From IMG/VR virus record IMGVR_UViG_3300033463_000011, positions 64,001-128,000 of that record: 64,000 bases of DNA. One strand, given 5' to 3'. Source of the DNA: a virus (lineage: Duplodnaviria > Caudoviricetes). The notes below the pieces were generated by a model. It saw nothing but the letters and a program-made list of their open reading frames with translations. It searched no databases and had not been told where the DNA came from. Made by a program: the position numbers and the translations under genes. Shown in pieces: positions 3,514 through 55,867 of this stretch (the first letter of the stretch is position 1; every line of letters starts with the position of its first letter).

Positions 3514-3558
3514 AATCGTTATAGTAAATGTATTTTATGGTATTAGGAGATATATGTA

Positions 3559-10276: not shown

Positions 10277-10316
10277 CCTTTAATAGAAGTATATATTATG
10301 TAAAGGGGTATATACT

Positions 10317-11194: not shown

Positions 11195-11196
11195 TT

Positions 11197-11961
11197 ATGA
11201 GGTTAAGCAGAATCTATACATCAAAAATGTATTTAACTAATCCTCGTAGGGATAGGATTCATGCAGCTATTAATAGCCCTGAGAATGTAGAATTAGTTCA
11301 GCAATTTGCAGATTATTTAGATGATGATTCTAAAGAAATATTAAAGCAGGCTATTAAAGAGCAAGCGGAGGCTAAACAGGCAGAAGATGTAAAATCAGAA
11401 CCTAAGGAATCTGGTGAAGGCGGTACGTCTGAAGAAAACTTCCCTGATGCAGAACATAATGTATTTTCCCCTTCTTATAGCGGAGGATCTTCGTTTGATA
11501 TTCCTGACGAGGGCGGAGACGTTGATGAGGGTGTTGACATATTTGATGTTCCTGAAGAAGGCTCAGAATCTGCTGAACCTGAACCTGAGGCTGAAGTTGC
11601 TGACATAGAAGAGTCTACTGAAGTTTCTGGAAAAGTAATTACTGCAGATACTTCAATCGAAGAGATAATAGTTGACATTGTAAGTGAGTCAAATGTAATT
11701 AAAGGAACACTTAATAGCATCAAAGATACTGCAGGAGTTATTAGAATTGCTGTTGATGACAATGAGCTTTGGATTTATTATAAAGACGAAGTTAACATCG
11801 GCGATATAATGGTAAATGTAATTGAAACGCTCAATGGCGCTAACTATACATACCTTACATTTAGCAGATTAGCAAGGTCTAATAATGCGATTGTATTTGA
11901 TATTAATTTTAACTTACAAGAACCTGTAAAATCTATCAATGAGGTATCGGAGGAAACTTGA
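11197..11961 (+). CDS. Acidic protein, possible head core/scaffold-like
   Basis: Long acidic linker with internal IHAA and VITAD sites resembling the leader core. The start at 11197 is inferred. Confidence 0.5.
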   Translation: MRLSRIYTSKMYLTNPRRDRIHAAINSPENVELVQQFADYLDDDSKEILKQAIKEQAEAKQAEDVKSEPKESGEGGTSEENFPDAEHNVFSPSYSGGSSFDIPDEGGDVDEGVDIFDVPEEGSESAEPEPEAEVADIEESTEVSGKVITADTSIEEIIVDIVSESNVIKGTLNSIKDTAGVIRIAVDDNELWIYYKDEVNIGDIMVNVIETLNGANYTYLTFSRLARSNNAIVFDINFNLQEPVKSINEVSEET

Positions 11962-17024: not shown

Positions 17025-17627
17025 ATGGTTATTATAGCCGCAGAAGCACTTGATTGGGGCAAGTTAGTAGTAGATTTCTTTGTCGCCTTACTTGCATTTT
17101 TCGCATGTACTGGATTCTGGGAATTGCGTAAAACAAAATTTTTAGCAAAACGAGAAGATAAAAAGGAAGAAAAAGATTACGATAGTAAGCTTGAGCATAT
17201 GTCGGAGCAAATGACCGGGATATCAGATCAGGTAACATCTTTATCAGATAAATTCGACTTTATGGCAGAAGATATGCAGGAGTTGAAAAAAGATATCATT
17301 CTTCTGCAGCAAGCTAATGAGGAAACTGTAAAGTATCGAGAATTAAGAGATGCTCAAGATAGAAAATCATTAAAGGCACAAGAAGCCGTAATTGAATCCC
17401 TTAAAGGGTTACTTCGAGATCGTTTACTAGAAGTATACAAGCAATGTATCGCTAAAGGTTATTACACCAAAGAGGAAAGAGAAACATACGGCGAGTTGTT
17501 TACCTGCTATGAAAGCGAGCCGTTTGACGGAAATGGTGTAATGCATCAACTGAGGCCTATTGTTCAAGCACTTCCTTGGACAGCCGAAGATGCAGGCAAA
17601 TTAAACGACACAGATAGCGATGATTGA
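17025..17627 (+). CDS. Membrane-anchored coiled-coil protein (holin-like)
   Basis: N-terminal transmembrane segment (FFVALLAFFACTGFW), a coiled coil, and a C-terminal Y...GNG...L...V..LP pattern. Confidence 0.5.
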   Translation: MVIIAAEALDWGKLVVDFFVALLAFFACTGFWELRKTKFLAKREDKKEEKDYDSKLEHMSEQMTGISDQVTSLSDKFDFMAEDMQELKKDIILLQQANEETVKYRELRDAQDRKSLKAQEAVIESLKGLLRDRLLEVYKQCIAKGYYTKEERETYGELFTCYESEPFDGNGVMHQLRPIVQALPWTAEDAGKLNDTDSDD

Positions 17628-17670
17628 ATCGTTATGATAAAATAACACTCATTCTTATTGAGAGAGCGAT

Positions 17671-19424: not shown

Positions 19425-20048
19425 ATGATAGATGAACACGAACTCAATACCTTTGGGGCGGGCAATTCTCAGGATACAATTAGTACCTCAGATGATTTAG
19501 TAAATCCCCTTTTAAGAGAACAACAAGCACAGGCAGCTCAAATGCGAGATGCCCTTTTAACATGTAAGAAAAACGACATAACTTCTGCAAAAGTAGCGTT
19601 ACAAAACATTGCAGTATTACAAGTATACCATCAGGTCGCAAGAATAATAAGATATACAGAAGTAATGGATAGGCTTGAGGATAAGTTATACGCTTCTATA
19701 GATGCAAATCTTGCACAGATGGATGATTTTGATCCAGCTACAATGATGATGCTAACTAAAGTACAAGCCGATTTAATGAAGTCAATGGTTATGTCGCAAG
19801 ATTTACTCAAACCCTATTTAGACATAGATTTAGATGCAATAGCACCTCCTCGAGATGTAAATGAAGAAACATCATTTGGTGCTGCAATATTGCCTAAAGA
19901 ATCTCGAAATGCAATTAGAAACGGCGCACAGGCATTATTGACTGAATTACGCAAGACTGAAACCAAACAACCTGAAGCTGAACCTGCTGAAAACCGTTCA
20001 ACAAGTGAGGAACAAGATGTCAGACCTGATACAGCCGATACGCAGTGA
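19425..20048 (+). CDS. Probable terminase small subunit
   Basis: Helical 207-aa ORF overlapping the large terminase; call is positional. Confidence 0.45.
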   Translation: MIDEHELNTFGAGNSQDTISTSDDLVNPLLREQQAQAAQMRDALLTCKKNDITSAKVALQNIAVLQVYHQVARIIRYTEVMDRLEDKLYASIDANLAQMDDFDPATMMMLTKVQADLMKSMVMSQDLLKPYLDIDLDAIAPPRDVNEETSFGAAILPKESRNAIRNGAQALLTELRKTETKQPEAEPAENRSTSEEQDVRPDTADTQ

Positions 20049-20967
20049 TTCTTTAGATTACGAAGATATCATATCTCGTATTAAAGCTATATACAATAGC
20101 TCCAGTCCGGTTGAGCAGAATTATTTCTTAAAAATCCTTGAAGAACTTGGAGATAAAGGTTATTCAGAAACTCTTGAGCAAGTCTACTTAGTAGATTTCA
20201 AAGAGGTTCCTGTAAGTATTGATAGATTTTTATGCGATCCTGAATACTTAGGTGAAACTAACGATTGTGGTAATCAAATATATCCAGGTTGGTGGAAAGT
20301 ATATAGTAGTGTATTCGATGCTCAGAATGATATTTATGAAGTAATCTTATCCGGAGCTACAAGAATCGGTAAAACATCAACAGCAGTTTCAATGATGTGT
20401 TATATGACATATCTATTGATGTGTTATAGAAATCCTCAAAGATATTTCGGATTAAAGGAAGTTTCCAGAGCAACAATTGGATTTGCTAACTTGACCAAAG
20501 AACTTGCAACTTCAGTTGCTTATCGAGAGTATCACGATACACTGATACAATCTCCTTGGTTTATGAAGCATGGTACAAAGAATAGTAGTGCAACTAAACC
20601 AATATTCATTCCCGAAGGAAATCAGATAGAAATCGTAGCCGCATCAGATGCTGCACACTTGCTCGGCATGCAGTTGTGGGCTTGTTTGGTTGGTGATACA
20701 AAGATAACCACCGATAAGGGAATATTCCCTATATCTGAATTAGATGGTAAATCAGTTAATGTATTGCAATACGATTACGATGCGAAGAAATATTGTTATG
20801 CAAATGCTGATGTTGTAAAAACGAAATATGTTAGCGATACTATAAAAATTACTTTAGAAGACGGTACAGTCTTTGAAGGAACACCTGATCATAAAGTAAT
20901 GCTTGCAGATGGTACATATAAGAGATTAGACGAATTGACTGAGAATGATGAGGTATTTTCATTATGA
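20017..20967 (+). CDS. terL: Terminase large subunit N-part fused to split-intein N half (IntN 20683-20964)
   Basis: Walker A-like GATRIGKT, then ...GMQLWA|CLVGDTKI...FEGTPDHKV (intein blocks A and B), then a stop. Confidence 0.9.
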   Translation: MSDLIQPIRSDSLDYEDIISRIKAIYNSSSPVEQNYFLKILEELGDKGYSETLEQVYLVDFKEVPVSIDRFLCDPEYLGETNDCGNQIYPGWWKVYSSVFDAQNDIYEVILSGATRIGKTSTAVSMMCYMTYLLMCYRNPQRYFGLKEVSRATIGFANLTKELATSVAYREYHDTLIQSPWFMKHGTKNSSATKPIFIPEGNQIEIVAASDAAHLLGMQLWACLVGDTKITTDKGIFPISELDGKSVNVLQYDYDAKKYCYANADVVKTKYVSDTIKITLEDGTVFEGTPDHKVMLADGTYKRLDELTENDEVFSL

Positions 20968-21023
20968 ATGATTATTACAAGGATAGAAAATACTTTGTAT
21001 ATCGACATGTTGCGCCTAATTAA
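20964..21023 (+). pseudogene. GIY-YIG homing endonuclease stub (MNDYYKDRKYFVYRHVAPN*)
   Basis: Resembles the Y-x-V-Y-x-H-x-x-P-N start of GIY-YIG nucleases; ATGA-coupled to IntN. Confidence 0.55.
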
Positions 21024-21038
21024 TTCGGAGGTCTATTA

Positions 21039-22526
21039 ATGAAAGTTGCTAAAATAGAACATATTCATTATGATGACTCAATACCTGTATATGACGTTGT
21101 CAATGCAGGAGACTTACATAATTTTGTAATACACACTGAGGATAGTGATGTTATTGCTCATAACTGTCTCATGGATGAGGTAAACTTCGCACGTGCCGGT
21201 ATAAAAGATATTACTATATCTAAAGGCCAGATGAAGAAAATGTACGATACAGCTAATGCACGTATTACAGGTACATTTAAGCTTGAAGGTAGAATATATG
21301 GTAAAATGTTCACCTGCTCATCTAAGAGTAGTGATAATGATTATCTTTCTGACCACATAGAAAAGCAGATAGATGCAGGCAATACGCATATGTATCTCTT
21401 TGATGAACCTCAGTGGAAAGTATTACCTGCATACAGATTTGGTAAAGAGAAGTTCTATATTACTATCGGTGATAGATATAAGAGAGGTTTCGTTGTCCCT
21501 GATGAAAATTCTGATGAAGAACATTTACAGGAATATAGAAATGAAGGCTATGAGGTCCTGGAAGTTCCTGCGGATTATAAACCTAACTTCAAAGCCGATT
21601 ATGATATCGCTTTAAGAGATATAGCCGGTAGGTCAGTAGTAGGTTCAATGGGTTTCATTACTCAGGAAATGATTACTCCTAATGTAAGCACTACTAGAGT
21701 AAATCCTTTCTTTGAGGATTACTATGAAATCGGCGTAAGAGATAATGATACAATAGAACGTCATTTTCATCTAGAAGTGGTTCCTGCTTACCTCAAGCAA
21801 TTACCTATGTATATTCACATCGACTTCGCTGAAAAGTCAGACCATATTGGCATTTCAGGAGTAGTAACTGATGGTAATAAGACAATATTAGATATTGAAA
21901 CAAATAAGAAGATAATGATGCCATTCTTTAGACAGATGTTCCAAGTAGCTATCGGTGCTCCTAGAGGAGATAAAATGTCATTCCAGAAAGTAATCAACTT
22001 CATACTGTGGTTGAGGCGAAGTGGATTTAATATTGGATTAGTTACTACCGACCAATATCAATCTTCTTATGTAAGAGAGACTTTAGATCAGCAAGGTTTT
22101 GAGACAGATAAGATTTCAGTAGATAGAACAATTGACCCATATATCTCACTTAGAAACTTGCTTCAAGATCAGAGAATCGAATTAGTTAAGTGCGATCTGC
22201 AAGAAATTGAGATGATTAACTTAGAGAGAAATGGAGATAGAATCGACCACAAACCTCAAAGTAATGCAGGAGCAGGTAGCGCTCTACCATGTTTAGCTAA
22301 TGGATACAATAGCAAAGGTATTGGTAAGGACTGTGCAGACGCTCTTTGTGGTGCTTGTTCTACAGCTATCGCCCATCTTGATTTAGTACGGCCTCCTGCA
22401 AAGAATGTTATTAATGCAATAGCATCAGTGAATACAGGAAAGGGTACTGGAATGTTTCCCAATAGATATGGGACAGGAACACGTCAACCACTACCTGGTT
22501 TTGGTAGTCAATATAGAAGATTTTAA
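21039..22526 (+). CDS. terL: Split-intein C half (42 aa, 21039-21164) fused to terminase large subunit C-part
   Basis: MKVAKIE...VYDVV...HNFVI...IAHN|CLMDEVNF; nuclease acidic motifs HIDFA, TDQYQS and KDCADA; GGAGG RBS. Confidence 0.9.
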   Translation: MKVAKIEHIHYDDSIPVYDVVNAGDLHNFVIHTEDSDVIAHNCLMDEVNFARAGIKDITISKGQMKKMYDTANARITGTFKLEGRIYGKMFTCSSKSSDNDYLSDHIEKQIDAGNTHMYLFDEPQWKVLPAYRFGKEKFYITIGDRYKRGFVVPDENSDEEHLQEYRNEGYEVLEVPADYKPNFKADYDIALRDIAGRSVVGSMGFITQEMITPNVSTTRVNPFFEDYYEIGVRDNDTIERHFHLEVVPAYLKQLPMYIHIDFAEKSDHIGISGVVTDGNKTILDIETNKKIMMPFFRQMFQVAIGAPRGDKMSFQKVINFILWLRRSGFNIGLVTTDQYQSSYVRETLDQQGFETDKISVDRTIDPYISLRNLLQDQRIELVKCDLQEIEMINLERNGDRIDHKPQSNAGAGSALPCLANGYNSKGIGKDCADALCGACSTAIAHLDLVRPPAKNVINAIASVNTGKGTGMFPNRYGTGTRQPLPGFGSQYRRF

Positions 22527-38322: not shown

Positions 38323-39240
38323 ATGAAGCAGTATATAAAAACAAGTAAACGATCTGATTTAATCAACGAGAAGAACCAGTGGCGTATGAAATATGACGCC
38401 AGAAGAGTTTTGTATGAATCTCAAACAAAACAATTTAATGACGCTGCAGATGCTTGGGAAGATCGTGTAATTAGAAAAGTATACAACCGATTTTCAGAAT
38501 ACTTTGAGAATATGCCCGGAGTTGAAATATACGTAGATGGCGGATATGATTATGATTCTTTATTTTCCAGAATAATCATTTCAAGATCTTCTTATCAAGG
38601 AGAATCTGGAGTTAACTGGGATTATGATGTATGTATTCATCCTACTAAAGATACAAAAACAATATGTTCTTGGAGTAACGGAAGGGCTAGAACTAGTGCT
38701 GGACATGATGTTCAAGCTGTATTAAACGAATTAGCTTATTCTACTCAGTTATTAAAAGAATTTGCTAATTTAGATTGGAAGCAATTTTTATACGAAGAAT
38801 TACTTTCAATGCCTAAGAAACGCCAATTCATTTCTGTATCTGATCCAGACTATGATCCAGAATATCAAGATCCGGGATATGACAATATGATACTTTATTC
38901 TGAAGTTGATCAAATTATCGGCAAAGACCTGTGGATGTTAACTAATACAGATAGATACTCTAGTGATTACGTTTGGGTAAAAATACTTTCTATAAATAAC
39001 GGAAAGTATAAATTTTACGCAGTTGCTGATCATGCGAATGCAAGTGTAATTTCATTAACTAATATACGTGATACTATAGTAACAAACAACTTAGGATTAG
39101 GCTCAACTACGGAATCCGACTTTAAGAGTCATTATGTTCCGGAACAACCGCTTAACATAGTAACAACAAGCGAATTAATAGAACATTATGAAAATAAGAT
39201 TGAATCTCGGATAGATCAGTTACGTGTACACGAGGAATAA
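38323..39240 (+). CDS. Leader-bearing protein with a C-terminal GKDxW domain
   Basis: MKQYIKTS; IIGKDLW...PLNIVTTSE. Confidence 0.65.
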   Translation: MKQYIKTSKRSDLINEKNQWRMKYDARRVLYESQTKQFNDAADAWEDRVIRKVYNRFSEYFENMPGVEIYVDGGYDYDSLFSRIIISRSSYQGESGVNWDYDVCIHPTKDTKTICSWSNGRARTSAGHDVQAVLNELAYSTQLLKEFANLDWKQFLYEELLSMPKKRQFISVSDPDYDPEYQDPGYDNMILYSEVDQIIGKDLWMLTNTDRYSSDYVWVKILSINNGKYKFYAVADHANASVISLTNIRDTIVTNNLGLGSTTESDFKSHYVPEQPLNIVTTSELIEHYENKIESRIDQLRVHEE

Positions 39241-39248
39241 ATTATAAT

Positions 39249-40100
39249 ATGTATATAAAATTTAGTAAAAAATTAGATTTAATACGAGAAAGAGATCAAT
39301 TCAAGCGCAATTTTGAAGCAAGGCAAGTGCTGTATGATTCTCAAATTAAAAACTACCGAGATGCAGAAGACCTTTGGGAAAGTATCATTGAATCTGAGAT
39401 AGAAAATGAATTTAAAGAATATATAAAAAATTTACCTTATTTGCGTATTTTTGTTAGAGCAATAGGCACCCAAGGTAATAGCATGAAAATAACAATTATA
39501 TATAATAATGAAGCTGATTCTAATTCCCCTAAGTGGAGATATGATGTAGATTTAGCTGCAAATGAAGATGACGAGGGCGTCCACATAGTTACGTCTACTC
39601 CTGCTATGTACTGGGATAGAATAAATTTTGCACAAATTGATATGGCGGAAATCTTACTAAATTCTGCAAAGTTAATCAGAGCTTTTGCAGATTTTGATTG
39701 GCAACGTTTAGTTGATTCCGCACTTGAAACAATTCCTAAGAAGAAAAATTACGTAGGAATAACTGAACCTAAATATGATATAGATTATCAAGATCCGGGA
39801 TATAACAGAAAGATACTTGAAGCACAGATAGAAGAAATCGTTGGAACTGATAACTGGTTAGTTGTAGATAATTACGGAGCTAAAAAATATATCAAAGTAA
39901 TTGATAACATTGGAGATTTTATACAATACAAATGTATATATCCTAACCTTTTAAATACAAGGGAACTAAATGAAGAATTAGAATCTGAACCTAATGCGGA
40001 TTTGAAAGATGATTTCTTTGAAATGTTTAAATTGCTTGAACCGTTAGAGATTATACCAGAAGATGATTTAAGAGATATTGCGAGTAGCTACGACGGGTGA
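39249..40100 (+). CDS. Paralog of 38323 with a degenerate GKDxW domain
   Basis: Shares AR.VLY.SQ and YQDPGY; IVGTDNW...PLEII. Confidence 0.65.
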   Translation: MYIKFSKKLDLIRERDQFKRNFEARQVLYDSQIKNYRDAEDLWESIIESEIENEFKEYIKNLPYLRIFVRAIGTQGNSMKITIIYNNEADSNSPKWRYDVDLAANEDDEGVHIVTSTPAMYWDRINFAQIDMAEILLNSAKLIRAFADFDWQRLVDSALETIPKKKNYVGITEPKYDIDYQDPGYNRKILEAQIEEIVGTDNWLVVDNYGAKKYIKVIDNIGDFIQYKCIYPNLLNTRELNEELESEPNADLKDDFFEMFKLLEPLEIIPEDDLRDIASSYDG

Positions 40101-40405: not shown

Positions 40406-42088
40406 ATGAAGGTTTACATCAGTGCAGCAAAAACAATTCAGCAACTCAAAGAACAAGACGCTCCAGATATGGATGAGTCGATCTTTGAAGAGTTAGTTAG
40501 ATTAGATCCTACATCAAAATATGATGAAGGAAAAGGAGGTAAATATACTCCTTGGGTCATTCGTCAATATAAGAAAGGTAATATTGACCTTGATGCAGAA
40601 GGCGAAGATAGTGTTGTAAACAGCTTAGTAGATTCTCTTGGATTATTTACTAAAGATTTCAAACATTTTAGCAAGAGAGATATCAATCAGTATAAAACAG
40701 TTCAAGAATTCTTAGACGAATCTAGACGAGTAGGTAATAGAGAATTAACTCCTAAGGAACTCGAAAAGCTTCATGGCAAACAGGCTCATCTTGCAGGTGA
40801 TAACGACAAGCAGTGTCTTGTAGAAGACGGCGATTGGCAGGTTTGGACACCCAAGACTTATGCAGGTTCAATTGCACTTGCAAGAATGGGTGGAGGTAAA
40901 CAAGCTGAATGGTGTACTGCTTGGACAAGAAGCGATAGCTACTATAGAAGTTACACAGCTAGAGGTCCACTTTACATTTTTATTAATAAGAATAACACTG
41001 GTGAAAAGTATCAGTCACATTTCGGAAACGATGGTAGAATTTCTTGGTTCTACGATATAGACGATCATGAGCGTGGCCAGCAAGCATTTACAGAGTTCTG
41101 TGCTAAGCATCCTAAGATCCAGCAATTCTTTAAACTTGAAAATAAAGATGGAATTCAAACAATGGCAGGTAATGTTATTGGCTATGATCCAAATGCTACT
41201 AAGATTGTTATTCCTGAAGGAGGTAGTCTGCTTTCAGGTAAGAGATTACCTTCTAGCCTCGAAACAGTAGTACTTCCTGATACAATGACATCATTACCTA
41301 GCTCAGTATTTGCAGGATTAGCTTCACTAGTAAATGTTCGTTTGCCTAAATCATTAACAGAAATTCCTTCGGATACATTTAAAAATTGCACTTCATTATC
41401 TCATATTGATATTCCCGATTCTGTTACAGTATATGGCAGTAATGCGTTTTCGGGGTGCACAAGTTTAAAGACAATTAATCACAGTAACAGCTTACAAGAA
41501 GTTAAAGACTATTGTTTCAAAGACTGCACGAGTCTTGAAGATGACTTACCTAATACAGTAACAAAGTTAGGTAAAGACGTATTCGCAGGTGCTGATTTAG
41601 CCGAATTTACAATGCCTGAAAGCTTAATGGAGATTAGCCCTAGTTCATTCGCAGGATGTAATATAAAGCAATTTAACATCAACAATGTCAAGACAATCAA
41701 AGCAAACGCATTTAAAGAATCTGGAGTTAATTCAATTGATTTGCGTAATGTAAATCACATTGGAAGTAATGCCTTCAGAGGATGTAACAAACTCACTACA
41801 TTTGATTTTAACCCTGAAGGAGTATCCATTGGTCCTTATGCTTTTGCAGATAGCAAAGCAAAACCTTCAAAGCCTATAACACTTTATCCTTCTACTACAA
41901 TTGATATTGGTACATTCGATAATTGTCCCAATATGACGATTCAGTGGGAAAAAGATGATGAACCTTATCCGTTCTTCAATATAGGATTACTTATTTGCGA
42001 TGAAAAGAAGTGCCCTGAATTAGTACGAGAGAATAAGGGAACAGTTAGGATACAAACAACTCAAGGTAATGAATATCCTGTAACATAA
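40406..42088 (+). CDS. Leader-bearing protein with a WCTA domain and BspA/TpLRR leucine-rich repeats
   Basis: MKVYISAA; WCTAW...GPLYIF; repeats such as LPKSLTEIPSDTFKNCTSL. Confidence 0.8.
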   Translation: MKVYISAAKTIQQLKEQDAPDMDESIFEELVRLDPTSKYDEGKGGKYTPWVIRQYKKGNIDLDAEGEDSVVNSLVDSLGLFTKDFKHFSKRDINQYKTVQEFLDESRRVGNRELTPKELEKLHGKQAHLAGDNDKQCLVEDGDWQVWTPKTYAGSIALARMGGGKQAEWCTAWTRSDSYYRSYTARGPLYIFINKNNTGEKYQSHFGNDGRISWFYDIDDHERGQQAFTEFCAKHPKIQQFFKLENKDGIQTMAGNVIGYDPNATKIVIPEGGSLLSGKRLPSSLETVVLPDTMTSLPSSVFAGLASLVNVRLPKSLTEIPSDTFKNCTSLSHIDIPDSVTVYGSNAFSGCTSLKTINHSNSLQEVKDYCFKDCTSLEDDLPNTVTKLGKDVFAGADLAEFTMPESLMEISPSSFAGCNIKQFNINNVKTIKANAFKESGVNSIDLRNVNHIGSNAFRGCNKLTTFDFNPEGVSIGPYAFADSKAKPSKPITLYPSTTIDIGTFDNCPNMTIQWEKDDEPYPFFNIGLLICDEKKCPELVRENKGTVRIQTTQGNEYPVT

Positions 42089-42106: not shown

Positions 42107-43387
42107 ATGAAAGTTTATATACGTGCAGCTCTTACAGTTAAGCAGCTTGAAACTCAAAATGGCGTAGGTTTAACAAAGCCTGTTCTTAAGCAAATCATTG
42201 AAATTGATCCTACATCAAACTACGACGAGGGAAAAGGCGGAAAATATTGTCCTTGGCTTATTAAGCAGCATAAGCTTGGCAATCTTACTCCTGACGATTA
42301 TACAAATGTCAAAGATGCTTTAGAGCTGTTCTCTAAAGACTTCAGACATTATCCTAATTCTGATATAAATCAGTATAAGACAGTAGAGCAATTCTTGTCT
42401 GATACTAACGCAGTAGCTAATAGAGAACTCACTGACAGAGAAAAAGAGAAGTTGCATGGTAAGCAAGCACATCAGGCTGGAGACGACGATAAGGAATTTC
42501 TTGTTGCAGATGGTGATTGGGAAGTTTGGACCCCTAAAACCTACACAGGTTCAATTGCTTTAGCAAGAATGGGCGGTGGAGGTCAGGCCGACTGGTGCAC
42601 AGCATGGACACGTAGTGATAATTATTATAAAAGCTACACTGCTAGGGGGCCTTTGTATATTTTCTTAAACAAGGGTAATACAGGAGAAAAGTATCAGCTT
42701 CATTTCCAGTCAGATTCTTGGTATGACGCAAGAGATAGATCTCTTGGAATGGATGCATTTTACGATTTTATCGCAAAATATCCTAAGTTCAAAGAATTCT
42801 TCAAGGTTAAATCAGAGGGTGGCGTACTTTCTAGGGCAGGTTCTATTATCAAGTATGATCCTGAAGCAACAGTTATCGATGTTCCTGCAGGGATGGAAAA
42901 GCTTCCTAACTTTAAATTCCCCGATAAATGTAAAGTAGTAAATCTTCCTGATTCTATTACTGAAATACCTCCTAAATGCTTTGAAAATTGCAAAGTAGAA
43001 ACTGTTACATTTAATAACGTAACTGCTATAAAAGCAGGAGCATTCAGAGGTTCAAGCATCAAGAACATTGACCTTTCTGGTGTAACACATATCGGAAGTA
43101 GTGCATTTAGAGATTGTAAGAAACTGCAATCAATAGATCTTAATCCAGAAGTAGTAATTAATTCATATTCCTTTGCAGGAGATCCAATTGGTGGCACTGT
43201 TGTAGTTGCTCCTACAATGAAACTTTCTATGAGTTCTTTCGAAGATTGTGCTAACCTCACAATAGTTTGGGAGAAGGAAGATGAACCTTACAGCTTCTAT
43301 GGAATTAAAGAATTAGTATTAGATCCTAAAGCTTGTCCAGAGTTATTTGAAATGAATAACGGAGAAGTACCTATTAGAAAGGTATAA
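42107..43387 (+). CDS. Tandem paralog with a WCTA domain and fewer TpLRR repeats
   Basis: MKVYIRAA; DPTS.YDEGKGGKY and WTPKTY.GSIALARMG shared with 40406. Confidence 0.8.
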   Translation: MKVYIRAALTVKQLETQNGVGLTKPVLKQIIEIDPTSNYDEGKGGKYCPWLIKQHKLGNLTPDDYTNVKDALELFSKDFRHYPNSDINQYKTVEQFLSDTNAVANRELTDREKEKLHGKQAHQAGDDDKEFLVADGDWEVWTPKTYTGSIALARMGGGGQADWCTAWTRSDNYYKSYTARGPLYIFLNKGNTGEKYQLHFQSDSWYDARDRSLGMDAFYDFIAKYPKFKEFFKVKSEGGVLSRAGSIIKYDPEATVIDVPAGMEKLPNFKFPDKCKVVNLPDSITEIPPKCFENCKVETVTFNNVTAIKAGAFRGSSIKNIDLSGVTHIGSSAFRDCKKLQSIDLNPEVVINSYSFAGDPIGGTVVVAPTMKLSMSSFEDCANLTIVWEKEDEPYSFYGIKELVLDPKACPELFEMNNGEVPIRKV

Positions 43388-43391
43388 CATA

Positions 43392-43571
43392 ATGCGAATA
43401 GATAACGATTTACCTAATGCTGAATTTGCAGAAGTTGACGACATAATTGATGAAGCTCGGCATAAATTTAATGAAGACTCTCAAATAACTAGATTCATAT
43501 TTGAACAGCTTTCAAATTTAGGTTATCTGCCCGAAGATATAGTTGAAATCTTATCATATGCAGGATATTAA
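43392..43571 (+). CDS. Hypothetical protein (59 aa, not in ORF track)
   Basis: MRIDNDLPNAEFAE...YAGY* fills the intergenic gap. Confidence 0.5.
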   Translation: MRIDNDLPNAEFAEVDDIIDEARHKFNEDSQITRFIFEQLSNLGYLPEDIVEILSYAGY

Positions 43572-43578
43572 TACGGTT

Positions 43579-43899
43579 ATGCGAAATTATAAAAATACTC
43601 TAGACAAATTTGTTGGGCAAGACGTTTGGGTTAAGGTCTACGAAGTAATTAAATATGGAGTAGGTCGAGGTTCAAATGAATATACAATCGAAAGCTGGAT
43701 AAGAATAGTAGAAGCTACAAAAGATATGTATATTGTTAATATATTGAATGATAGAAGAGTAACTCATTCTGGCTTTTATTCTTGCAATGAAGCTGAAAAA
43801 GAAAAGGTATTATCAACTTCGTTTGGGTTTCCTAAATCATATTTTACATTATTTGAACCGCTTGACTGCCTTACTACAGAAGAAATACTGGGAGATTAA
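43579..43899 (+). CDS. GKDxW-family protein (leader not evident)
   Basis: LDKFVGQDVWVKV...WIRIV...PLDCLTTEE. Confidence 0.7.
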   Translation: MRNYKNTLDKFVGQDVWVKVYEVIKYGVGRGSNEYTIESWIRIVEATKDMYIVNILNDRRVTHSGFYSCNEAEKEKVLSTSFGFPKSYFTLFEPLDCLTTEEILGD

Positions 43900-43901
43900 T
43901 C

Positions 43902-44678
43902 ATGAAAATTGAATCTTCAAAATTTAATTTATTCGGAAAAAACAAAGATAACTTTCAAAGAGAAATCAAACAAGCTATCGGAAAGAATATCTGGGTCAAG
44001 GTTGAGTTATTTAAAAATTCTCCTTTAGTTAATATGATGAATGTTAGCAGCATGTTTGGAATACACGGAACATGTTGGGTAAGACTACTAGCAGTTGTAG
44101 ATAACTTTTATATTTGCAATATATGCAAGGCAAGCGAATCTGAAGAAGGCACTGTTGAAGTAACTAAAGAAGAGATAAAGAAAATCCTCACAACTAAATG
44201 TAAAATTAGCGTAGGTACAGTAAGTTTAGTTACTCCTGTTGAAATGTTAACTACTGACGAATTGTTTAATGTTGTTGAGAATCATTCACAACCAGAAGTT
44301 AACGATGCCAATGAGGATGAGTACATTGAAGAAATTGCAGATGATGATGTCCACAACAATTGGCCTAATCGACAATTTTGGGAGAATTGCGAGGACATAG
44401 ATGAGATATGGAACGATTATCTCAATGTGCCTGAAAATATCATAAATCAGGAACTGCAAATATTTCCAGAACCTTCAGTTCAAGGAGGTATGGGCGGAAT
44501 GTTTATTTATGATGAATCTGGCGAACACAGATTTTCAAATATATACGTAGATTATCAAGAATGGTGTGAAGCAGAATTAGAAATGGCAGCAGATTCTACT
44601 TCAGCAGAAGAATACGCAGATAGATATAGAGACTACGTTCTTGAATTAATGGATAACGCAGAAGTTGAAGAAGAGTAA
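43902..44678 (+). CDS. GKDxW domain fused to an acidic C-terminal domain
   Basis: MKIESS; IGKNIWVKV...PVEMLTTDE, then an acidic domain. Confidence 0.7.
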   Translation: MKIESSKFNLFGKNKDNFQREIKQAIGKNIWVKVELFKNSPLVNMMNVSSMFGIHGTCWVRLLAVVDNFYICNICKASESEEGTVEVTKEEIKKILTTKCKISVGTVSLVTPVEMLTTDELFNVVENHSQPEVNDANEDEYIEEIADDDVHNNWPNRQFWENCEDIDEIWNDYLNVPENIINQELQIFPEPSVQGGMGGMFIYDESGEHRFSNIYVDYQEWCEAELEMAADSTSAEEYADRYRDYVLELMDNAEVEEE

Positions 44679-44928
44679 ATGAAAATATACGCATCTAACA
44701 GAAATAACAACATACTTGAACGCATCATAGGAAAAGATGTCTGGATTTTGGTAGATATTCTAGAAGCTGAAACATGGGCAGAAAAGTTTTACAAAAGATA
44801 CTTTATTCAAATAGATGGGAAAGATTCTGAATTTTACAGCCCAGATTACAATCACTCGTGTCAGGAAAGATGATATAAAAGTAATTGAACCAATTGAAAT
44901 ATATACAACTGACGAATTATTTAACTAA
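44679..44928 (+). pseudogene. Frameshifted, internally shortened GKDxW-family gene
   Basis: MKIYAS...IIGKDVW lies in one frame; the family C-terminus VIEPIEIYTTDELFN* lies in another. Confidence 0.7.
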
Positions 44929-44988
44929 TTTTTCTCAATTATAATCTACATAGAGTTCAGTCGTAATTAGATGGAGTTTTATATTTAT

Positions 44989-45396
44989 ATGGATTTTGAT
45001 ACAAATAATCATTCAGTATTCAAATTGCATTATCATCTTATTATGTGTGTGAAATATCGTAATAAGGTTATCACAGATGATATATCTATGCGACTAAGAA
45101 GTATTTTTGAATATATTGCACCAAACTACAATATTGTGTTAGAAGAATGGAACCATGATGTAGATCATGTGCATATACTTTTTAGGGGAGCCCCAAATAC
45201 CGAAATAAGCAAATTCATAAATGCATATAAATCTGCAAGTAGTCGGCTTATCAAGAAAGAATTTCCCCAGATCCGCAAATCCCTTTGGAAAGAAATGTTT
45301 TGGTCACAAAGTTTCTGTCTCATATCAACTGGGGGTGCAACTGTAGATACAATTAAAAAATATATACAATCCCAAGGAAAGAAAGATGGCAAATAA
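44989..45396 (+). CDS. tnpA: IS200-type Y1 transposase
   Basis: YHLIMCVKYR, HUH motif DHVH and catalytic Tyr in KKYIQSQ. Confidence 0.92.
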   Translation: MDFDTNNHSVFKLHYHLIMCVKYRNKVITDDISMRLRSIFEYIAPNYNIVLEEWNHDVDHVHILFRGAPNTEISKFINAYKSASSRLIKKEFPQIRKSLWKEMFWSQSFCLISTGGATVDTIKKYIQSQGKKDGK

Positions 45397-46519
45397 GGCG
45401 ATCAAGTACAGATTATATCCTACCGCAGAACAGGCGGTTATGTTTTCTAAAACTTTCGGTTGTTGTCGTAAGGTCTATAATCTGATGCTTGAAGATAAGA
45501 TTGCATCCTATCAAAATAGTAAGACATTCGGTAAGCAAACCCCTGCTATGTATAAAACTGCTTATCCGTTTCTTAAAGAAGTTGATAGTTTGTCCCTTGC
45601 CAATGTTCAATTAAATCTTCAAGGTGCTATGCGAAACTGCTTTGACAAGAAACGCAAAAAGAAGAATGGTTTTCCTAAATTCAAGTCTGCAAAGCATAGT
45701 CGCAAATCTTATACCACCAATAATCAAAATGGTACTGTTGCAATAATCGACAATAGGTATATTAAACTTCCTAAAATCGGCGAAGTCAAAGCAGTAATTC
45801 ACAAAGATCCGGAACTTGATTGGGTAATTAAGTCTGCTACTATATCACAGGATAGCGATGGAAAGTTTTATGTCTCTGTTCTGTTTGAATTTGACAAAGT
45901 AATTGAGCAAATTCCTGTATCAGATAATGCGATTGGTTTAGACTATGCTTCAGATGGATTATATGTTGATGATAAAGGAAACGTAGGTTCTAACCATAAA
46001 TTCTATAGAGAAAGTCACAAGAAACTTGTGAAAGAGCAGAGAAGGTTATCCAGAAAAGTGGGTTCTAAAAAGAATTCCGCTAAATCTCATAACTATCAAA
46101 AACAGCTTCTTAAAGTAAATAAGATACATAAGCATATCACAAATCAGCGTTTAGACGATCTTCACAAGAAGTCTACTGCGATAGCCAAACAGTATGATGT
46201 CGTTTGTGTTGAAAGCCTGAATATGCAGTCTATGTCAAATAGAGGTTTTGGTAACGGAAAAGCCACTATGGACAATGGATATGGTATGTTCCTCACTATG
46301 CTCGAATACAAACTTGCGGATAGAGGAAAATATTTTGTCAAAGTTGATAAGTGGTTTCCGAGTAGTCAGTTATGCCATTGTTGTGGAACAATCCATAAAG
46401 AGATGAAAAATTTGACTATCCGAACTTTGCAATGTGATTGTGGTATGACAATCAGTCGTGACCAAAATGCGGCTATCAACATCAGAAACGAGGGATTGCG
46501 GATTCTAAGCTCTGCATAA
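45386..46519 (+). CDS. tnpB: TnpB RNA-guided nuclease
   Basis: KYRLYP...FGC helix-turn-helix; RuvC GLD, VESL and RDQNAAINI; Zn finger. Confidence 0.93.
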   Translation: MANKAIKYRLYPTAEQAVMFSKTFGCCRKVYNLMLEDKIASYQNSKTFGKQTPAMYKTAYPFLKEVDSLSLANVQLNLQGAMRNCFDKKRKKKNGFPKFKSAKHSRKSYTTNNQNGTVAIIDNRYIKLPKIGEVKAVIHKDPELDWVIKSATISQDSDGKFYVSVLFEFDKVIEQIPVSDNAIGLDYASDGLYVDDKGNVGSNHKFYRESHKKLVKEQRRLSRKVGSKKNSAKSHNYQKQLLKVNKIHKHITNQRLDDLHKKSTAIAKQYDVVCVESLNMQSMSNRGFGNGKATMDNGYGMFLTMLEYKLADRGKYFVKVDKWFPSSQLCHCCGTIHKEMKNLTIRTLQCDCGMTISRDQNAAINIRNEGLRILSSA

Positions 46520-49182: not shown

Positions 49183-49210
49183 TTCCTCATTTTAGGTATC
49201 CATACTACAG

Positions 49211-49238
49211 GGCAGGTAGCTTCGGCTATCTGCCTTTT
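49211..49238 (+). terminator. Rho-independent terminator with a cUUCGg loop
   Basis: GGCAGGTAGC-TTCG-GCTATCTGCC-TTTT. Confidence 0.85.
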
Positions 49239-49285
49239 GTATGTATACACCTTATATGTGTATATAAATTATCTTGGAGAAATTT

Positions 49286-49972
49286 ATGAAATTATATATT
49301 CAAGCAGCTATCGCAAAATATGAAAAGCCCTGTACTATATATTACGGAGACGGAAATAGTTCTGCAAGTAGAGGAAACGAACCAGAACACATTAGTGAAC
49401 TTAGAGGATACGCCTGTAGCCCTGAAATGGCATTAGTAGCTGCACTTAATGCAGACATATTAGAAAATGGATTCACATCTAAAGATATATTAGATGCTAT
49501 ATTAGATGATGACGAATGGGATCAAGAATATTTTGAATTTGATGACCCTGAGGATTTTAGCGTTGAAGAAATTAATTCTAAAGGAATTGACTTCTGGATA
49601 TCAAAAATCTATGATATAGATCTTGGAGGAGGATATCCGTATCCCTATAAAGTAGAATTCAATAATCAAGTAATATTTCACGATAAAGTTACTGAAGAGA
49701 ACTTGCTTCCAGATGCTGTAAGAACTCCAGAACAAGAAACAGCTTGGTATCTAAGAAAAAGAGAAGAAAATTATCGACTTGGTCTTGCACATCATTCTGA
49801 TGATGCTGAAATACTTGATGATTTAGCAAATGATGGTTCTTTTGAGATTAAATCTTTAGTATGTGTTAATCCAAATGTTTCAAATAAAACTCTCCTAAAA
49901 TTATATTATAGCCAAAATTCAACTATAAGTTACATGGCAGGAAATAGATTAAAAGAACGCGGAGTTATTTGA
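49286..49972 (+). CDS. Leader-bearing protein (MKLYIQAA) with a C-terminal LRV/HEAT-like repeat
   Basis: Leader; LDDLAND...NPNVS...L.KL. Confidence 0.6.
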   Translation: MKLYIQAAIAKYEKPCTIYYGDGNSSASRGNEPEHISELRGYACSPEMALVAALNADILENGFTSKDILDAILDDDEWDQEYFEFDDPEDFSVEEINSKGIDFWISKIYDIDLGGGYPYPYKVEFNNQVIFHDKVTEENLLPDAVRTPEQETAWYLRKREENYRLGLAHHSDDAEILDDLANDGSFEIKSLVCVNPNVSNKTLLKLYYSQNSTISYMAGNRLKERGVI

Positions 49973-49973: not shown

Positions 49974-50336
49974 ATGAAAATATATAGTCATACGCACAAA
50001 CCCAAGGTAAACAATGTTGACAGCATGCAGGAATATCTTAAAAACTTTATAGGCAAAGAGCTGTGGGTTAAGGTAGGTATTGACCAAGATTATAATCTAT
50101 TTTACATTAGGGTAATTAATATATCTGGAAGCACATTAACTTGTAATCAAATATCAGCTGTGTTGGTAGATGAATCTGAAGACTATCTTTCACTGCAAGA
50201 AGATATTGATAGGTTGGAATATATCAAAAGATATGATTTATATGACATAGAAGTACCTGAAGATGGTAAACTAGACGTATATTCGACAGATGAAATAATG
50301 GAAATATTAAAAAATAGCGGGACGAGGTATATGTAA
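49974..50336 (+). CDS. GKDxW-family protein with leader
   Basis: MKIYSH; FIGKELWVKV...VYSTDE. Confidence 0.75.
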   Translation: MKIYSHTHKPKVNNVDSMQEYLKNFIGKELWVKVGIDQDYNLFYIRVINISGSTLTCNQISAVLVDESEDYLSLQEDIDRLEYIKRYDLYDIEVPEDGKLDVYSTDEIMEILKNSGTRYM

Positions 50337-50665
50337 TGAAGATATATGCTAACAGCTACACTAAAGAAGATTTAGAATATTATATTGGAAAAGATATCTG
50401 GGTCAAATGTTATTGTGCAAGCGGACATTCATATTACATGAGAATATTGTCTAAAGGTACTTCAAAATATGGAACTCCAATAATTATATTTAATAAGATA
50501 AAAGCTTATATAGTGGAAAACTTTAGGCCAACAATGAAATTGTTATCTACTTTGTTAAATGAGCAGGATCGCGGTATGATAAATGATTATGAAGTTTGTG
50601 AACCTATAGAAACACTAACAACTGACGAAATCATAGATATATTTGAACGAAAGAACGAACAATGA
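50336..50665 (+). CDS. GKDxW-family protein with leader
   Basis: MKIYAN; IGKDIWVK...PIETLTTDE. Confidence 0.75.
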   Translation: MKIYANSYTKEDLEYYIGKDIWVKCYCASGHSYYMRILSKGTSKYGTPIIIFNKIKAYIVENFRPTMKLLSTLLNEQDRGMINDYEVCEPIETLTTDEIIDIFERKNEQ

Positions 50666-50982
50666 TTATATACGCGTCGTCACAATCAAACGAACTTGAT
50701 AGATTCGTGGGCAAAGATGTGTGGATTAAAGCACACGTACCTAAACCCGGACCTAAATATAATGATCTCTATATATGGATACGAATACTCAATTCTGAAT
50801 ATGATGACGAATTAAAACAGGAAGGATACCGAGTTAACATTTGCGTTGATATGCGACACGTTAATAGCGAAGTCTTTAATGAAATATTAGATTACTCAGA
50901 AGTATTCCCTAAATATTATTTTAACGTAGTTAAACCTTATGACGTATTAACAACTAACGAACTAAAGGAGTCGCTTTCATGA
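50662..50982 (+). CDS. GKDxW-family protein with leader
   Basis: MIIYAS; FVGKDVWIK...PYDVLTTNE. Confidence 0.75.
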   Translation: MIIYASSQSNELDRFVGKDVWIKAHVPKPGPKYNDLYIWIRILNSEYDDELKQEGYRVNICVDMRHVNSEVFNEILDYSEVFPKYYFNVVKPYDVLTTNELKESLS

Positions 50983-51323
50983 AAATCTACGCATCAAGAC
51001 AACGTAAAGTAGCTGATTTTGTTGGTACAGGCTTGTGGATTAAAGTAATGAATCCTGACAACAGTAATTATACTTCTTATATAAAGTTACTTAAAGAAGT
51101 AAAGAGTTTAGATGATTGCGAAGATTGGATTGGATACGAATTTCAATCAATTCCTGAATGGGAAATTAATAGTTGGATAAATGGTGAAGCAGTAATAAGC
51201 AAAAGAATGAAGCTCAAAAAAGACGTTGCCGATAAATCTTATTTCGACGGACTCGTTTACTTAAATGAATGCTTTACTGATGAAGAAATGATGGAGTTAA
51301 TAAGGAGTAATAAAGAGCAATGA
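50979..51323 (+). CDS. GKDxW-family protein with leader
   Basis: MKIYAS; FVGTGLWIKV...FTDEE. Confidence 0.7.
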   Translation: MKIYASRQRKVADFVGTGLWIKVMNPDNSNYTSYIKLLKEVKSLDDCEDWIGYEFQSIPEWEINSWINGEAVISKRMKLKKDVADKSYFDGLVYLNECFTDEEMMELIRSNKEQ

Positions 51324-51622
51324 AGATATATGCATCAACTTCAACTAACTTAGATAAATTCATTGGCAAAGATTTATGGGTGCTCGTTTTAAAACGCGGT
51401 GGAGGTAAATCTTGGGTTCGTATATTAAGAAAAGAACGTAATGAATATATAGTTAACGCTGTTCCTAGAAACTTTGCGGATTATAGTGGATTTAATGCAA
51501 GAGACGCTAATTTTTACAACCAACACGCAATTCGTTTCTTCACAAACGAATTAATTTTAGTTCAACCTGTAGAAATTTTGACAACAGAAGAAATGTTTGA
51601 AAACCATAAGGAGGATCTCTGA
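51320..51622 (+). CDS. GKDxW-family protein with leader
   Basis: MKIYAS; FIGKDLWV...PVEILTTEE. Confidence 0.75.
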   Translation: MKIYASTSTNLDKFIGKDLWVLVLKRGGGKSWVRILRKERNEYIVNAVPRNFADYSGFNARDANFYNQHAIRFFTNELILVQPVEILTTEEMFENHKEDL

Positions 51623-51933
51623 TGATTATATACGCAGCAAGACCAGTAATGAAAGAAAAGCCTGATGAAGATATATTTAAACAAGTAATCGGCAAAGATG
51701 TTTGGATTAAGGTAAGACCAAAGCATAGTCCGTCCGATACTTTATATGCCAAGATACTTCGTATTGATAATAATGGATGGTTCGAAACTAAAGCTATTGA
51801 TATAGATAGATTGAATTTTCTTAGAAATAATAGAGAAAAGATACCTACACGAGGGTATGGTCGTCATTTCTTAATTGTTTGCAGGCCTGTTGAAATAATA
51901 ACTGAAGACGAATTGTTTGAGACAGAGCAATGA
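51622..51933 (+). CDS. GKDxW-family protein with leader
   Basis: MIIYAA; IGKDVWIKV...PVEIITEDE. Confidence 0.75.
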   Translation: MIIYAARPVMKEKPDEDIFKQVIGKDVWIKVRPKHSPSDTLYAKILRIDNNGWFETKAIDIDRLNFLRNNREKIPTRGYGRHFLIVCRPVEIITEDELFETEQ

Positions 51934-52262
51934 AGATATACGCAAATAAAAATCGTTATTTAGATCTAGAATACTTCAAAGGAAAAGAACTTTGGGTTAA
52001 AGTATTTAATGTAGAAACGATATCATTTCAGTATGTTAGAATACTGTCTATTGGTGGCAATTATGCACAATATAACAGAATTAATTCAGATGCCATAGAC
52101 GGAAATGATTTAGTATTACGTGAACATTTTGATTGGGTAACTAGTATTCTAACAAAGAAATTTTTAACTAAAGCAGATATGTTGCTAATAGCAGAGCCTA
52201 TAGAATTACTAACAACGGATGAATTTGTTGATTTAGTAAAAGAAAAGCAGGTGTATCCATGA
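51930..52262 (+). CDS. GKDxW-family protein with leader
   Basis: MKIYAN; KGKELWVKV...PIELLTTDE. Confidence 0.75.
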   Translation: MKIYANKNRYLDLEYFKGKELWVKVFNVETISFQYVRILSIGGNYAQYNRINSDAIDGNDLVLREHFDWVTSILTKKFLTKADMLLIAEPIELLTTDEFVDLVKEKQVYP

Positions 52263-52594
52263 AGATATATTCATCAAAATATTCAAATCAATTTGATAAA
52301 TATGCAGGAAAAGATATCTGGGTTAAAGTTAGAAGCAATAATCACAGCAATTACTTTTATATCAAGGTACTATATACCGAAGGTGATAACGTAGTTTGTA
52401 ACTCTGCACTTTCAGATTACATAGAGTCTCCTATAAATGATGTGTCAATTAAATGGGAAGACCTAGTAAACTATTTAAGCACTCAGTATACTTTTTACAT
52501 TCCTGATTTAACAATAGTGCATCCTGTGCAAACATTCACATATGAGGAATTAATCGAAGAGATTTCAGCTAACTACACTATTGATTACACGTAA
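52259..52594 (+). CDS. GKDxW-family protein with leader
   Basis: MKIYSS; AGKDIWVKV...PVQTFTYEE. Confidence 0.75.
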   Translation: MKIYSSKYSNQFDKYAGKDIWVKVRSNNHSNYFYIKVLYTEGDNVVCNSALSDYIESPINDVSIKWEDLVNYLSTQYTFYIPDLTIVHPVQTFTYEELIEEISANYTIDYT

Positions 52595-52629
52595 CGCTGA
52601 ATCGTTATATATTGCGAGGAGGCTTAGTT

Positions 52630-53106
52630 ATGTTTGAAAAGAGGTTTAGTTCCCCAGAATCATTAAATTATTATATGTCGGATTTTGAATACAAAGAATT
52701 CGATAGATTAATGAGTCCCGTACAGGTATTTGAACAAGAAAGCGGATCTTGCCATGACCTAGCTATTTTTGAAAATTACGAGTTATCTATCATGGGGTTA
52801 GATACTGTAGCAAAATTTCTTATTGCAGTTGATGATATTGGGCAAGGGCAAGAAACCCATTCATTTGTATACTATTTTAATGATGATAAAGTATATTGGT
52901 TTGAAAATGCTTGGACAGATTTTAGCGGAATCAATGAATTTGATAGCGAAGAAGAATTACTTGCATTTGTAATCGGAGAATTTTCAGCAAGAAACTTAGG
53001 TATGACAATATATATTGCAGATTTAATACCTAGAGAACATAGAGTTGGTGAAACTTTAAATCAGTTTGTCGATATCTGCATGGAAACTGCAGAAGAAATA
53101 AAATAA
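52630..53106 (+). CDS. Transglutaminase/papain-like protein
   Basis: GSCHD...THSF...WFENAW, a putative Cys-His-Glu triad. Confidence 0.5.
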   Translation: MFEKRFSSPESLNYYMSDFEYKEFDRLMSPVQVFEQESGSCHDLAIFENYELSIMGLDTVAKFLIAVDDIGQGQETHSFVYYFNDDKVYWFENAWTDFSGINEFDSEEELLAFVIGEFSARNLGMTIYIADLIPREHRVGETLNQFVDICMETAEEIK

Positions 53107-55816: not shown

Positions 55817-55867
55817 ATCAGAATCGTTATAAACTTTGTATCAATAATTCTAATAGGAGGCTATCAT

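Follow-up and report, generated by a model that had tools for sequence, protein, structure and literature searches.

In T-even phages, the internal proteins are diverse counter-defence proteins that vary from phage to phage and have only a capsid-targeting sequence (CTS) in common (PMC3012670). IPI* is a proven injected anti-restriction protein (PMC3012670, PMC8442874). The T4 head protease cuts scaffold and internal proteins alike at its consensus, and the tag of the internal proteins, MKTYQEFIAE, is removed once (PMC8442874). Among giant phages, the head of SPN3US packs 20 proteins of Paralog family B; phiKZ has 2, and the number varies from 2 to 20 among relatives (PMC5694885). The locus considered here lies in the 200,233-bp IMG/VR virus record IMGVR_UViG_3300033463_000011, from an uncultured phage of the Caudoviricetes. 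Bases 64001-128000 of the record make up the 64,000-nucleotide stretch that was analysed (the window), and positions given below are those of the window unless stated otherwise. At 49974-52594 it contains a tandem array of eight genes for small proteins of an undescribed family, which begin with a short tag resembling the T4 CTS. By analogy with T4, the family may be capsid-loaded cargo that is tagged, trimmed and injected as a set of varied host-factor binders, a reading that we hold tentatively and place somewhat below an even chance.

The eight array genes, all on the plus strand, lie where the first-pass annotation of the window had placed them. They are joined by start/stop overlaps of 4 nt (ATGA) or 1 nt, and each has a Shine-Dalgarno-like GGAG or GAGG 8 to 13 nt upstream. 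In order, they encode proteins of 120 amino acids (aa) (49974-50336, leader MKIYSH), 109 aa (50336-50665, MKIYAN), 106 aa (50662-50982, MIIYAS), 114 aa (50979-51323, MKIYAS), 100 aa (51320-51622, MKIYAS), 103 aa (51622-51933, MIIYAA), 110 aa (51930-52262, MKIYAN), and 111 aa (52259-52594, MKIYSS). A profile hidden Markov model (HMM) built from 39 paralogs matches them with expectation values (E) between 1e-17 and 1e-30 (3e-21, 3e-28, 4e-27, 3e-17, 2e-30, 5e-19, 2e-26, and 9e-30, respectively). The fourth copy is the most divergent, having GTGLW in place of the usual GKDxW and lacking the P of the C-terminal PxE.

The same HMM finds exactly 15 domains in the window (E 1e-12 to 1e-30), which agrees in both number and position with the first reading of the sequence. 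Besides the eight array copies, these are the genes at 36071/36083, 36981, and 43543, the N-terminus of the protein encoded at 43902, the C-termini of those encoded at 38323 and 39249, and a broken copy at 44679. The window holds only about one third of the family, however. The whole genome gives about 44 profile matches, counted as 42 copies: the 15 in the window, 25 in a block at genome position 136.5-148.4 kb, and 2 at 48.5 kb. All but one of the 42 are intact, and the 39 aligned copies total 13.3 kb, about 7% of the genome. A typical member is a protein of about 105 aa composed of an N-terminal tag of 5 or 6 residues, M-K-I-Y-[A/C/S]-[S/N/A], a short variable linker, and a small barrel.

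The tag extends well beyond the family. Approximately 65 forward open reading frames (ORFs) in the genome begin M-[KR]-x-Y, and about 20 of these are unrelated to the family, including two BspA-type leucine-rich repeat (LRR_5) proteins. The tag is therefore common to otherwise unrelated proteins and is a module separate from the fold. In this it is like the T4 and T-even internal proteins (IPI, IPII, IPIII, and the polymorphic ip loci), and an M-K-x-Y start is shared with the T4 CTS itself (PMC8442874). The two systems differ in the length of the tag, which has 5 to 8 residues here and 10 in T4, and in scale: T4 has a handful of tagged proteins and this genome about 60, two thirds of them with one hyper-expanded fold. 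The family form of the tag is given above; the unrelated proteins carry M-K-x-Y-I-[K/R]-[A/S]-[S/A], and both forms contain [ILV]-x-[small]-[S/A].

Several lines of evidence set the tag apart from the domain that follows it. In the structural model of a family member (described below), residues 1 to 10 have a mean predicted local distance difference test (pLDDT) score of 48, placing the tag outside the fold, and the first 5 to 10 residues are disordered in the model of a fused form as well. Homologs from outside the genome start with MKIY in 126 of 162 cases. When a homolog contains two domains, the tag is found only at the N-terminus of the protein, and the second domain starts at profile position 10 to 12; the fused forms in the window likewise have the tag only at the protein N-terminus. 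Tagged proteins that do not belong to the family retain the tag in orthologs at 47-57% identity, and for untagged proteins the tag is absent in every relative compared.

The strongest clue to mechanism is the match between the tag and a putative head-protease site. As in T4, the head has a Gp23-family major capsid protein (PF07068, E 1.5e-17) and an S77-like protease plus scaffold. Here the latter are combined in a 497-aa fusion, encoded next to the capsid gene (genome position 154308-155801), in which a head-maturation protease N-domain (PHROG 207, E 8e-19) is followed by a coiled-coil C-region. The motif [ILV]-x-A-S occurs 66 times in the 59,525 residues of the proteome (0.11 per 100 aa), and 8 of these occurrences are in the protease-scaffold protein, an enrichment of about 15-fold that none of 20,000 shuffles reaches. 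Orthologs of this protein at 75, 73, and 39% identity contain 7, 7, and 8 such motifs (0 of 3,000 shuffles), and the middle residue of the motif varies between the orthologs. The T4-style motif [LI]-x-E, used as a control, is not enriched in the protease-scaffold proteins (p 0.6-0.75). The N-terminal 90 residues of the capsid protein contain ITAA, INAG, ITSA, and VMAA, and 15 proteins of the genome have an [ILV]-x-A-S motif whose first residue is among their first six. Read most simply, [ILV]-x-A-S, cut between Ala and Ser, would be the protease site of this clade, and the leader would unite targeting with cleavage. Like that of the T4 internal proteins, the tag would then end at a head-protease-type site, albeit with the putative cut after a small residue rather than Glu.

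The proposed pathway has four steps. The tag would act like the T4 CTS, drawing the protein into the assembling prohead. There the T4-type (S77-like) head protease would remove the tag by cutting behind the small residue in [ILV]-x-[A/C/S]. Barrels matured in this way would stay inside the capsid and be delivered into the host cell together with the DNA, and their variable loops would then bind differing host factors, with defence proteins as the likeliest targets. The analysis shows that the copies form one family, how many there are and how volatile that number is, the class of the fold, and a tag that is separate from it and matches a motif enriched in the scaffold; every step of the pathway itself, from targeting through cleavage, packaging, and injection to the binding of targets, we infer for this phage.

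A number of observations weigh against this pathway. The protease scores 22.7 bits against the Pfam S77 model, under the curated cut-off of 27, and at the putative P1 position 12 family copies carry Cys. With 5 residues, the propeptide would be half as long as the T4 CTS, and about 60 distinct packaged proteins would make a very large cargo. The family is acidic (median isoelectric point 4.86, with six of the eight array copies acidic), unlike the highly basic internal proteins of T4 (PMC8442874). Some tagged genes share an upstream motif, GAATCGTTATA (see below), with replication genes, so that these genes need not be expressed late. Finally, the Ile codon at position 3 is ATA in 28 of 30 family copies, compared with 37% of Ile codons genome-wide (P 2e-10), indicating that a constraint at the RNA level (AUG AAR AUA UAY) also acts at the start, as would fit a translation or regulatory signal.

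The last of these observations speaks for a different explanation, in which the proteins are unpackaged cytoplasmic accessory or host-takeover factors and the shared AUG AAR AUA UAY serves as a signal for translation initiation or regulation, such as the operator of a T4 RegA-kind repressor or an unstructured, A/U-rich start. The sharing of GAATCGTTATA with replication genes points the same way, and an acidic isoelectric point is typical of phage early proteins. A start-site signal would equally predict a tag confined to true N-termini, and the disorder of the tag in the models also counts in its favour. Against it, the tag is conserved at the protein level. AAA and AAG each account for about half of the Lys codons of the tag, as do TAT and TAC for Tyr, and Ser and Arg come from several codon boxes; the Lys, Tyr, Ser, Ala, and Arg positions are kept through synonymous and cross-box codons. 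In the non-family proteins position 3 varies (I/V/L/R/Q), yet Y and I-[KR]-[AS]-[SA] persist. Upstream of the tagged ORFs there is only a generic purine-rich ribosome-binding signal. The capsid, sheath, and protease genes, which are highly expressed, start with MA... rather than MKIY, and the tag ends in the very motif that is enriched in the scaffold clade-wide. A purely cytoplasmic role with a start signal is thus unlikely, though it keeps an appreciable chance.

The copy number of the family is volatile. In five related contigs (sheath identity 71-82%), the gap between the tail sheath gene and the SNF2 helicase gene, which contains the array here, is 0.6 to 2.9 kb long, compared with 4.1 kb in this genome; it contains other small ORFs and no family members. 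In one of these relatives, L004, the slot holds a 411-aa ORF that is possibly TnpB-like. Counted over whole records, profile matches come to 3, 2, 1, 1, and 0 in five related ones, whereas this genome has 44. The relative G001 (IMGVR_UViG_3300028914_000060, 175,559 bp, median protein identity 63%) has its baseplate genes directly adjacent where this genome has 25 copies. At least 18 of its proteins carry the tag, so the tag system is separable from the expansion of the family. A tblastn search detects no major capsid protein and no head protease in G001, and because this head module is missing, its counts, including its 3 family copies, are lower bounds. The G001 record is labelled 100% complete, an estimate that is misleading for this clade given the missing capsid and protease genes.

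Dense arrays do recur in other metagenome contigs, with 21 domains in 8.4 kb, 19 in 7 kb, and 23 in about 9 kb, the last adjoining an ortholog of a tail or baseplate gene of this genome. These arrays mix single- and double-domain genes, and none of their domains is more than 42% identical to any copy here. With slots empty in relatives and repertoires unshared, the family changes in copy number and repertoire far more quickly than the structural genes around it, and the window array appears to be a lineage-specific block in a variable sheath-SNF2 slot. Cargo genes at the T-even ip loci are likewise highly variable between relatives.

These comparisons bear on the possibility that the proteins are associated with the virion in a structural or physical capacity, such as head filling, an inner-body-like role, spacers in DNA packing, or accessory subunits of the baseplate. 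The neighbourhood fits such a role, since 25 copies sit between baseplate genes and eight follow the sheath gene, and the match of the tag to the protease motif also counts in its favour. The heads of SPN3US and phiKZ, moreover, hold large paralog families of unknown role (PMC5694885). Like Paralog family B, the family described here is large and mostly tandem, is found in a giant phage with a T4-related head protease, and varies strongly in the number of its members; Paralog B proteins are candidates for ejection proteins (PMC5694885). Members of Paralog B in SPN3US, however, are 275 to 500 aa long and mostly uncleaved (PMC10052503), whereas the proteins here have about 105 aa and a putative cleavable tag. 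Homology between the two families was considered and rejected (hhalign probability 0.3%, hmmsearch --max scores of about 0). A structural component should also have orthologs and a constant copy number. Relatives with a median identity of 63% instead have 1 to 3 copies and empty slots, related arrays contain no ortholog above 42% identity, and one copy is already a pseudogene. A structural role is for these reasons distinctly unlikely. The refuting condition set at first reading, a known housekeeping or structural domain of constant copy number, does not hold either: no known housekeeping domain is found, and the copy number is far from constant, with 1 to 3 copies in relatives and 42 here.

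The sequences themselves indicate that the expansion is old and diversified, as had been proposed at first reading. The paralogs are 18-37% identical, with no pair above about 37%, and most of the eight array members resemble copies of the distant array more closely than they do the genes next to them. Repeats at the DNA level are confined to coding motifs, which are 66-80% identical and have drifted at third positions, and the array goes undetected by Tandem Repeats Finder. A recent tandem duplication, or an expansion driven by DNA repeats, is rejected on the same grounds. The low paralog identity, the location of nearest relatives elsewhere, and the lack of DNA repeats beyond the motifs indicate old copies whose likeness is maintained by selection at the protein level. 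Orthologs of family copies at 88-96% identity are found as proteins. Ortholog pairs in other metagenome arrays are identical or one substitution apart (2 nonsynonymous and 0 synonymous in all) and give no power for a comparison of nonsynonymous with synonymous rates.

What has been conserved over this divergence is a small set of anchors, which the first-pass annotation had picked out correctly. The G and W of GKDxW, the P of PxE, and the E of TTxE are all at least 90% conserved in the family; in an alignment of the 14 intact window copies, the G and W are invariant and the C-terminal P and E nearly so. Among the conserved residues are K19, D20, E92, T95, and E98. Mean entropy is lowest in the leader (1.1 bits, length 4 to 6 residues) and remains low in the α1-β1 segment LDxFxGKDxWVKV (1.7 bits, length fixed at 13), in β2, [WY]I[KR]IL (1.9 bits, fixed at 5), and from β5 to the start of the C-terminal helix, PxE..TTxE (2.1 bits, 15 to 30). 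Variability is concentrated in the β1-β2 loop (3.6 bits, 7 to 24 residues), the β2-β3 hairpin (3.0 bits, 6 to 16), and the helical insert (3.3 bits, 15 to 40). The earlier suggestion of a variable surface thus holds for the loops and the helical insert, which differ in length as well as in sequence.

This conservation is difficult to reconcile with the idea that the copies are selfish or neutral cassettes spreading by recombination through variable slots with no consistent benefit to the phage. That idea draws on the slots of the relatives, in which other small accessory genes and a large ORF resembling a transposase are found, on an IS200/IS605 element that adjoins the broken copy, and on the 164-aa neighbour of the array at 52612, which sits elsewhere in a relative. 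Yet 41 of the 42 copies are intact; core, tag, and translational coupling are all kept at 18-37% identity; no DNA-level repeat goes beyond the coding motifs; and a family that takes up 13.3 kb of the genome recurs as dense arrays in other phages. We regard this explanation as very improbable.

The family had not been recognised at first reading, and searches bear this out. Scans of Pfam and PHROGs with ten copies, and with all 39 paralogs, give nothing meaningful, and a sequence-profile search of the Protein Data Bank (PDB) has as its best match LSm5, at a non-significant E of 0.8-0.95. A tblastn search of 50,697 deposited phage genomes with a family member finds no homolog in T4 or any other phage, and the same search with the sheath protein also finds no match. 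Searches for related loci with two array members, with a two-domain homolog, or with the family alignment are equally without a match. By contrast, an exhaustive profile search of 1.84 billion cluster representatives returns 1,053 matches at E ≤0.001, of which 512 are at E ≤1e-10; none of the metagenome matches that were checked is a named or Pfam-bearing cluster.

An AlphaFold2 model of the second array copy, made from the paralog alignment, is confident (pLDDT 90.5, predicted template-modelling score 0.81). A short helix leads into a small barrel of five strands (residues 22-27, 32-42, 48-56, 77-81, and 85-87), which has a two-helix insert between its third and fourth strands and is followed by a C-terminal helix. 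The topology of a five-stranded small β-barrel is present, and a designed SH3 barrel matches it with a Z score of 5.0. At the level of topology, the guess of a small β-rich, SH3/KOW-like fold is in keeping with this model, whose best neighbours are WYL, Sm/Hfq, Tudor/chromo, and designed SH3-like domains. The WYL domains among them are those of CapW (7tb6, Z 5.9), BrxR (7t8k, Z 5.1), and DriD (8tp8, Z 4.7); Hfq/LSm, Tudor, and chromo domains are at Z 3.5-4.5 (Tudor and chromo 3.6-4). These Z scores are below the level that the tool gives as possibly arising from a common arrangement. Foldseek against the PDB gives only weak Sm matches (best E about 0.1). A structure search of the ESM Atlas finds WYL-named clusters at template-modelling (TM) scores of 0.53-0.54 (0.49-0.54 with Rof included), and Sm-ATX at 0.44. 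Scores of this size support a fold class, that of a small Sm/SH3-like barrel; they do not support membership in any of the neighbour families, and they imply no function.

The likeness to the WYL/Sm-like barrels (CapW, BrxR, DriD, Hfq) includes an N-terminal helix, a five-stranded bent barrel, and a variable insert between strands 3 and 4, with 60 to 75 residues aligned at 2.6-4 Å (Z 5.9-4.0), although these scores are within generic fold resemblance. It invites the suggestion that the family members are Sm/WYL-like binders of ligands or nucleic acids, perhaps sponges or decoys for signalling molecules, single-stranded DNA, or RNA, whether packaged or not. The best neighbours, after all, are the WYL sensor domains from CapW and BrxR, two regulators of defence, together with DriD and Hfq/LSm; WYL-named clusters are among the Atlas matches; and LSm5 provides the best, if non-significant, PDB profile matches. 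Sequence models do not bear the relationship out: none of the 39 paralogs matches the Pfam WYL model (PF13280) at E ≤0.1, and no family member matches the LSM model even at E 0.1. Unlike the WYL/Sm-like barrels, the family stands alone, leader-tagged and without a helix-turn-helix partner, and it has an extra C-terminal helix with a conserved P-x-E...T-T-x-E motif. Acidity argues against general binding of nucleic acids, and 42 divergent sets of loops fit many targets better than one class of ligand. Given in addition that the Z scores lie under the level that would exclude generic resemblance, a role of this kind is improbable.

Capsid delivery of the tagged proteins would have several consequences if it is correct. 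No known set of capsid-delivered phage proteins would come near theirs in size, and they would be a natural case in which a single compact scaffold has diversified into a repertoire. The family would offer many new inhibitors of bacterial defence systems, each of about 100 aa and easily screened, and the 5-residue tag could load foreign proteins into capsids, as the T4 CTS already does. It would also show the specificity of a head protease and its whole set of substrates changing together. A broader version of the idea, which we consider doubtful, is that a clade of uncultured jumbo phages with a minimal 5-residue tag, a T4-family protease that has switched its cut to small residues, and dozens of cargos, mostly one barrel in 40 or more versions, might inject a fast-turning-over 'binder library' that meets host defences before phage genes are expressed. 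Even if the proteins are unpackaged, the family is a sizeable gap in annotation, with more than 1,000 clusters and about 7% of a genome absent from Pfam and PHROGs.

The array also looks like its own transcription unit, shared with one other tagged gene, as judged from the terminator before it and the candidate promoter motif after it. The strong intrinsic terminator, at 49209-49236 on the plus strand (a 12-bp stem with 6 GC pairs and a T-rich tail), follows the tail sheath gene and separates it from the array unit. The first gene of the unit (49286-49972, plus strand) encodes a tagged, non-family protein of 229 aa (MKLYIQAA...). Its likely start is the ATG at 49286, with GGAG 7 nt upstream, rather than the TTG at 49274 given by the ORF list. 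The eight coupled genes come next, and a plus-strand copy of GAATCGTTATA at 52599-52609 then opens the following unit.

GAATCGTTATA is a candidate phage-specific promoter, judging by its distribution: there are 36 copies on the plus strand and 5 on the minus strand, typically 40 to 60 nt before gene starts, and it is about 10-fold enriched just upstream of genes. In the window it is found at 3513-3523, 17626-17636, 32482-32492, 33503-33513, 35031-35041, and 55821-55831 in addition to 52599-52609, and there are about 20 more genome-wide; the genes behind it include replication genes, such as the clamp-loader gene. A T4-late-type promoter, TATAAATA, was considered before the array and rejected: TATAAAT occurs 73 times on the plus and 63 times on the minus strand, a distribution without strand bias that assigns the array to no promoter class. 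A scan for σ70 promoters before the array rises barely above shuffled sequence. The ORF opened by the GAATCGTTATA copy at 52599 (52612-53106, 164 aa) has a 54%-identical ortholog at another genomic position in the relative L006 (5627-6121), which suggests a single-gene cassette that moves behind its own promoter motif.

The family members of the window that lie outside the array are all on the plus strand and take several forms. A single-domain copy at 36083-36454 has the leader MKIYCS (HMM E 6e-25), one at 36981-37397 has the leader MKVYVRS and a C-terminal extension (E 1e-22), and one at 43543-43899 has a weak leader, MKSYHM (E 2e-27). In the fused form at 38323-39240, the leader MKQYIKTS is followed by a helical/β N-region and then by the barrel (aa 193-295); a fold search with the N-region matches only generic helical hairpins (Z <7). 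Its paralog at 39249-40100 has the barrel at aa 191-281. In the fused form at 43902-44678, the order is reversed, with the barrel at aa 1-131 and an acidic C-terminal extension after it (E 1e-25).

The copy at 44679-44928, noted as broken in the first-pass annotation, is a pseudogene that has suffered a frameshift and an internal deletion. The N part, 44679-44873, covers the N-terminal 57 profile positions, and the C part, ...IKVIEPIEIYTTDELFN, continues in frame 2 to 44925, with a stop codon at 44926-44928. Directly downstream is an intact IS200/IS605 element (44971-46519) with a tnpA-tnpB pair, encoding TnpA (Y1_Tnp, E 8e-43) and TnpB (OrfB_IS605, with a Cas12f-like TNB domain). Insertion of this element as the cause of the broken copy is not supported: the copy carries a frameshift and a deletion of its own, and the C-terminal fragment already stops upstream of the gene for the transposase.

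Three further observations concern other genes. The two tagged BspA-type LRR_5 proteins (40406-42088 and 42107-43387) share an N-terminal domain of about 250 aa (GDWE.WTP...GPLYIF.NK..GEKYQ.H), which has no Pfam family, with an untagged protein of the head region (L003:2619-3737). Large paralogs with many Cys-rich, zinc-ribbon-like repeats are encoded at 30403-32475 in the window and at L003:7978-9864 and 10009-11817, and two of them share a C-terminal domain at their ends. The large terminase (20005-22526) is apparently split between a pair of ORFs, one ending in an intein-like N-part (...CLVGDTKITTDKG...) and the next opening with a C-part that closes in ...VIAHNC; about 70 nt containing a stop codon lie between them, an arrangement that could be a split or interrupted intein.

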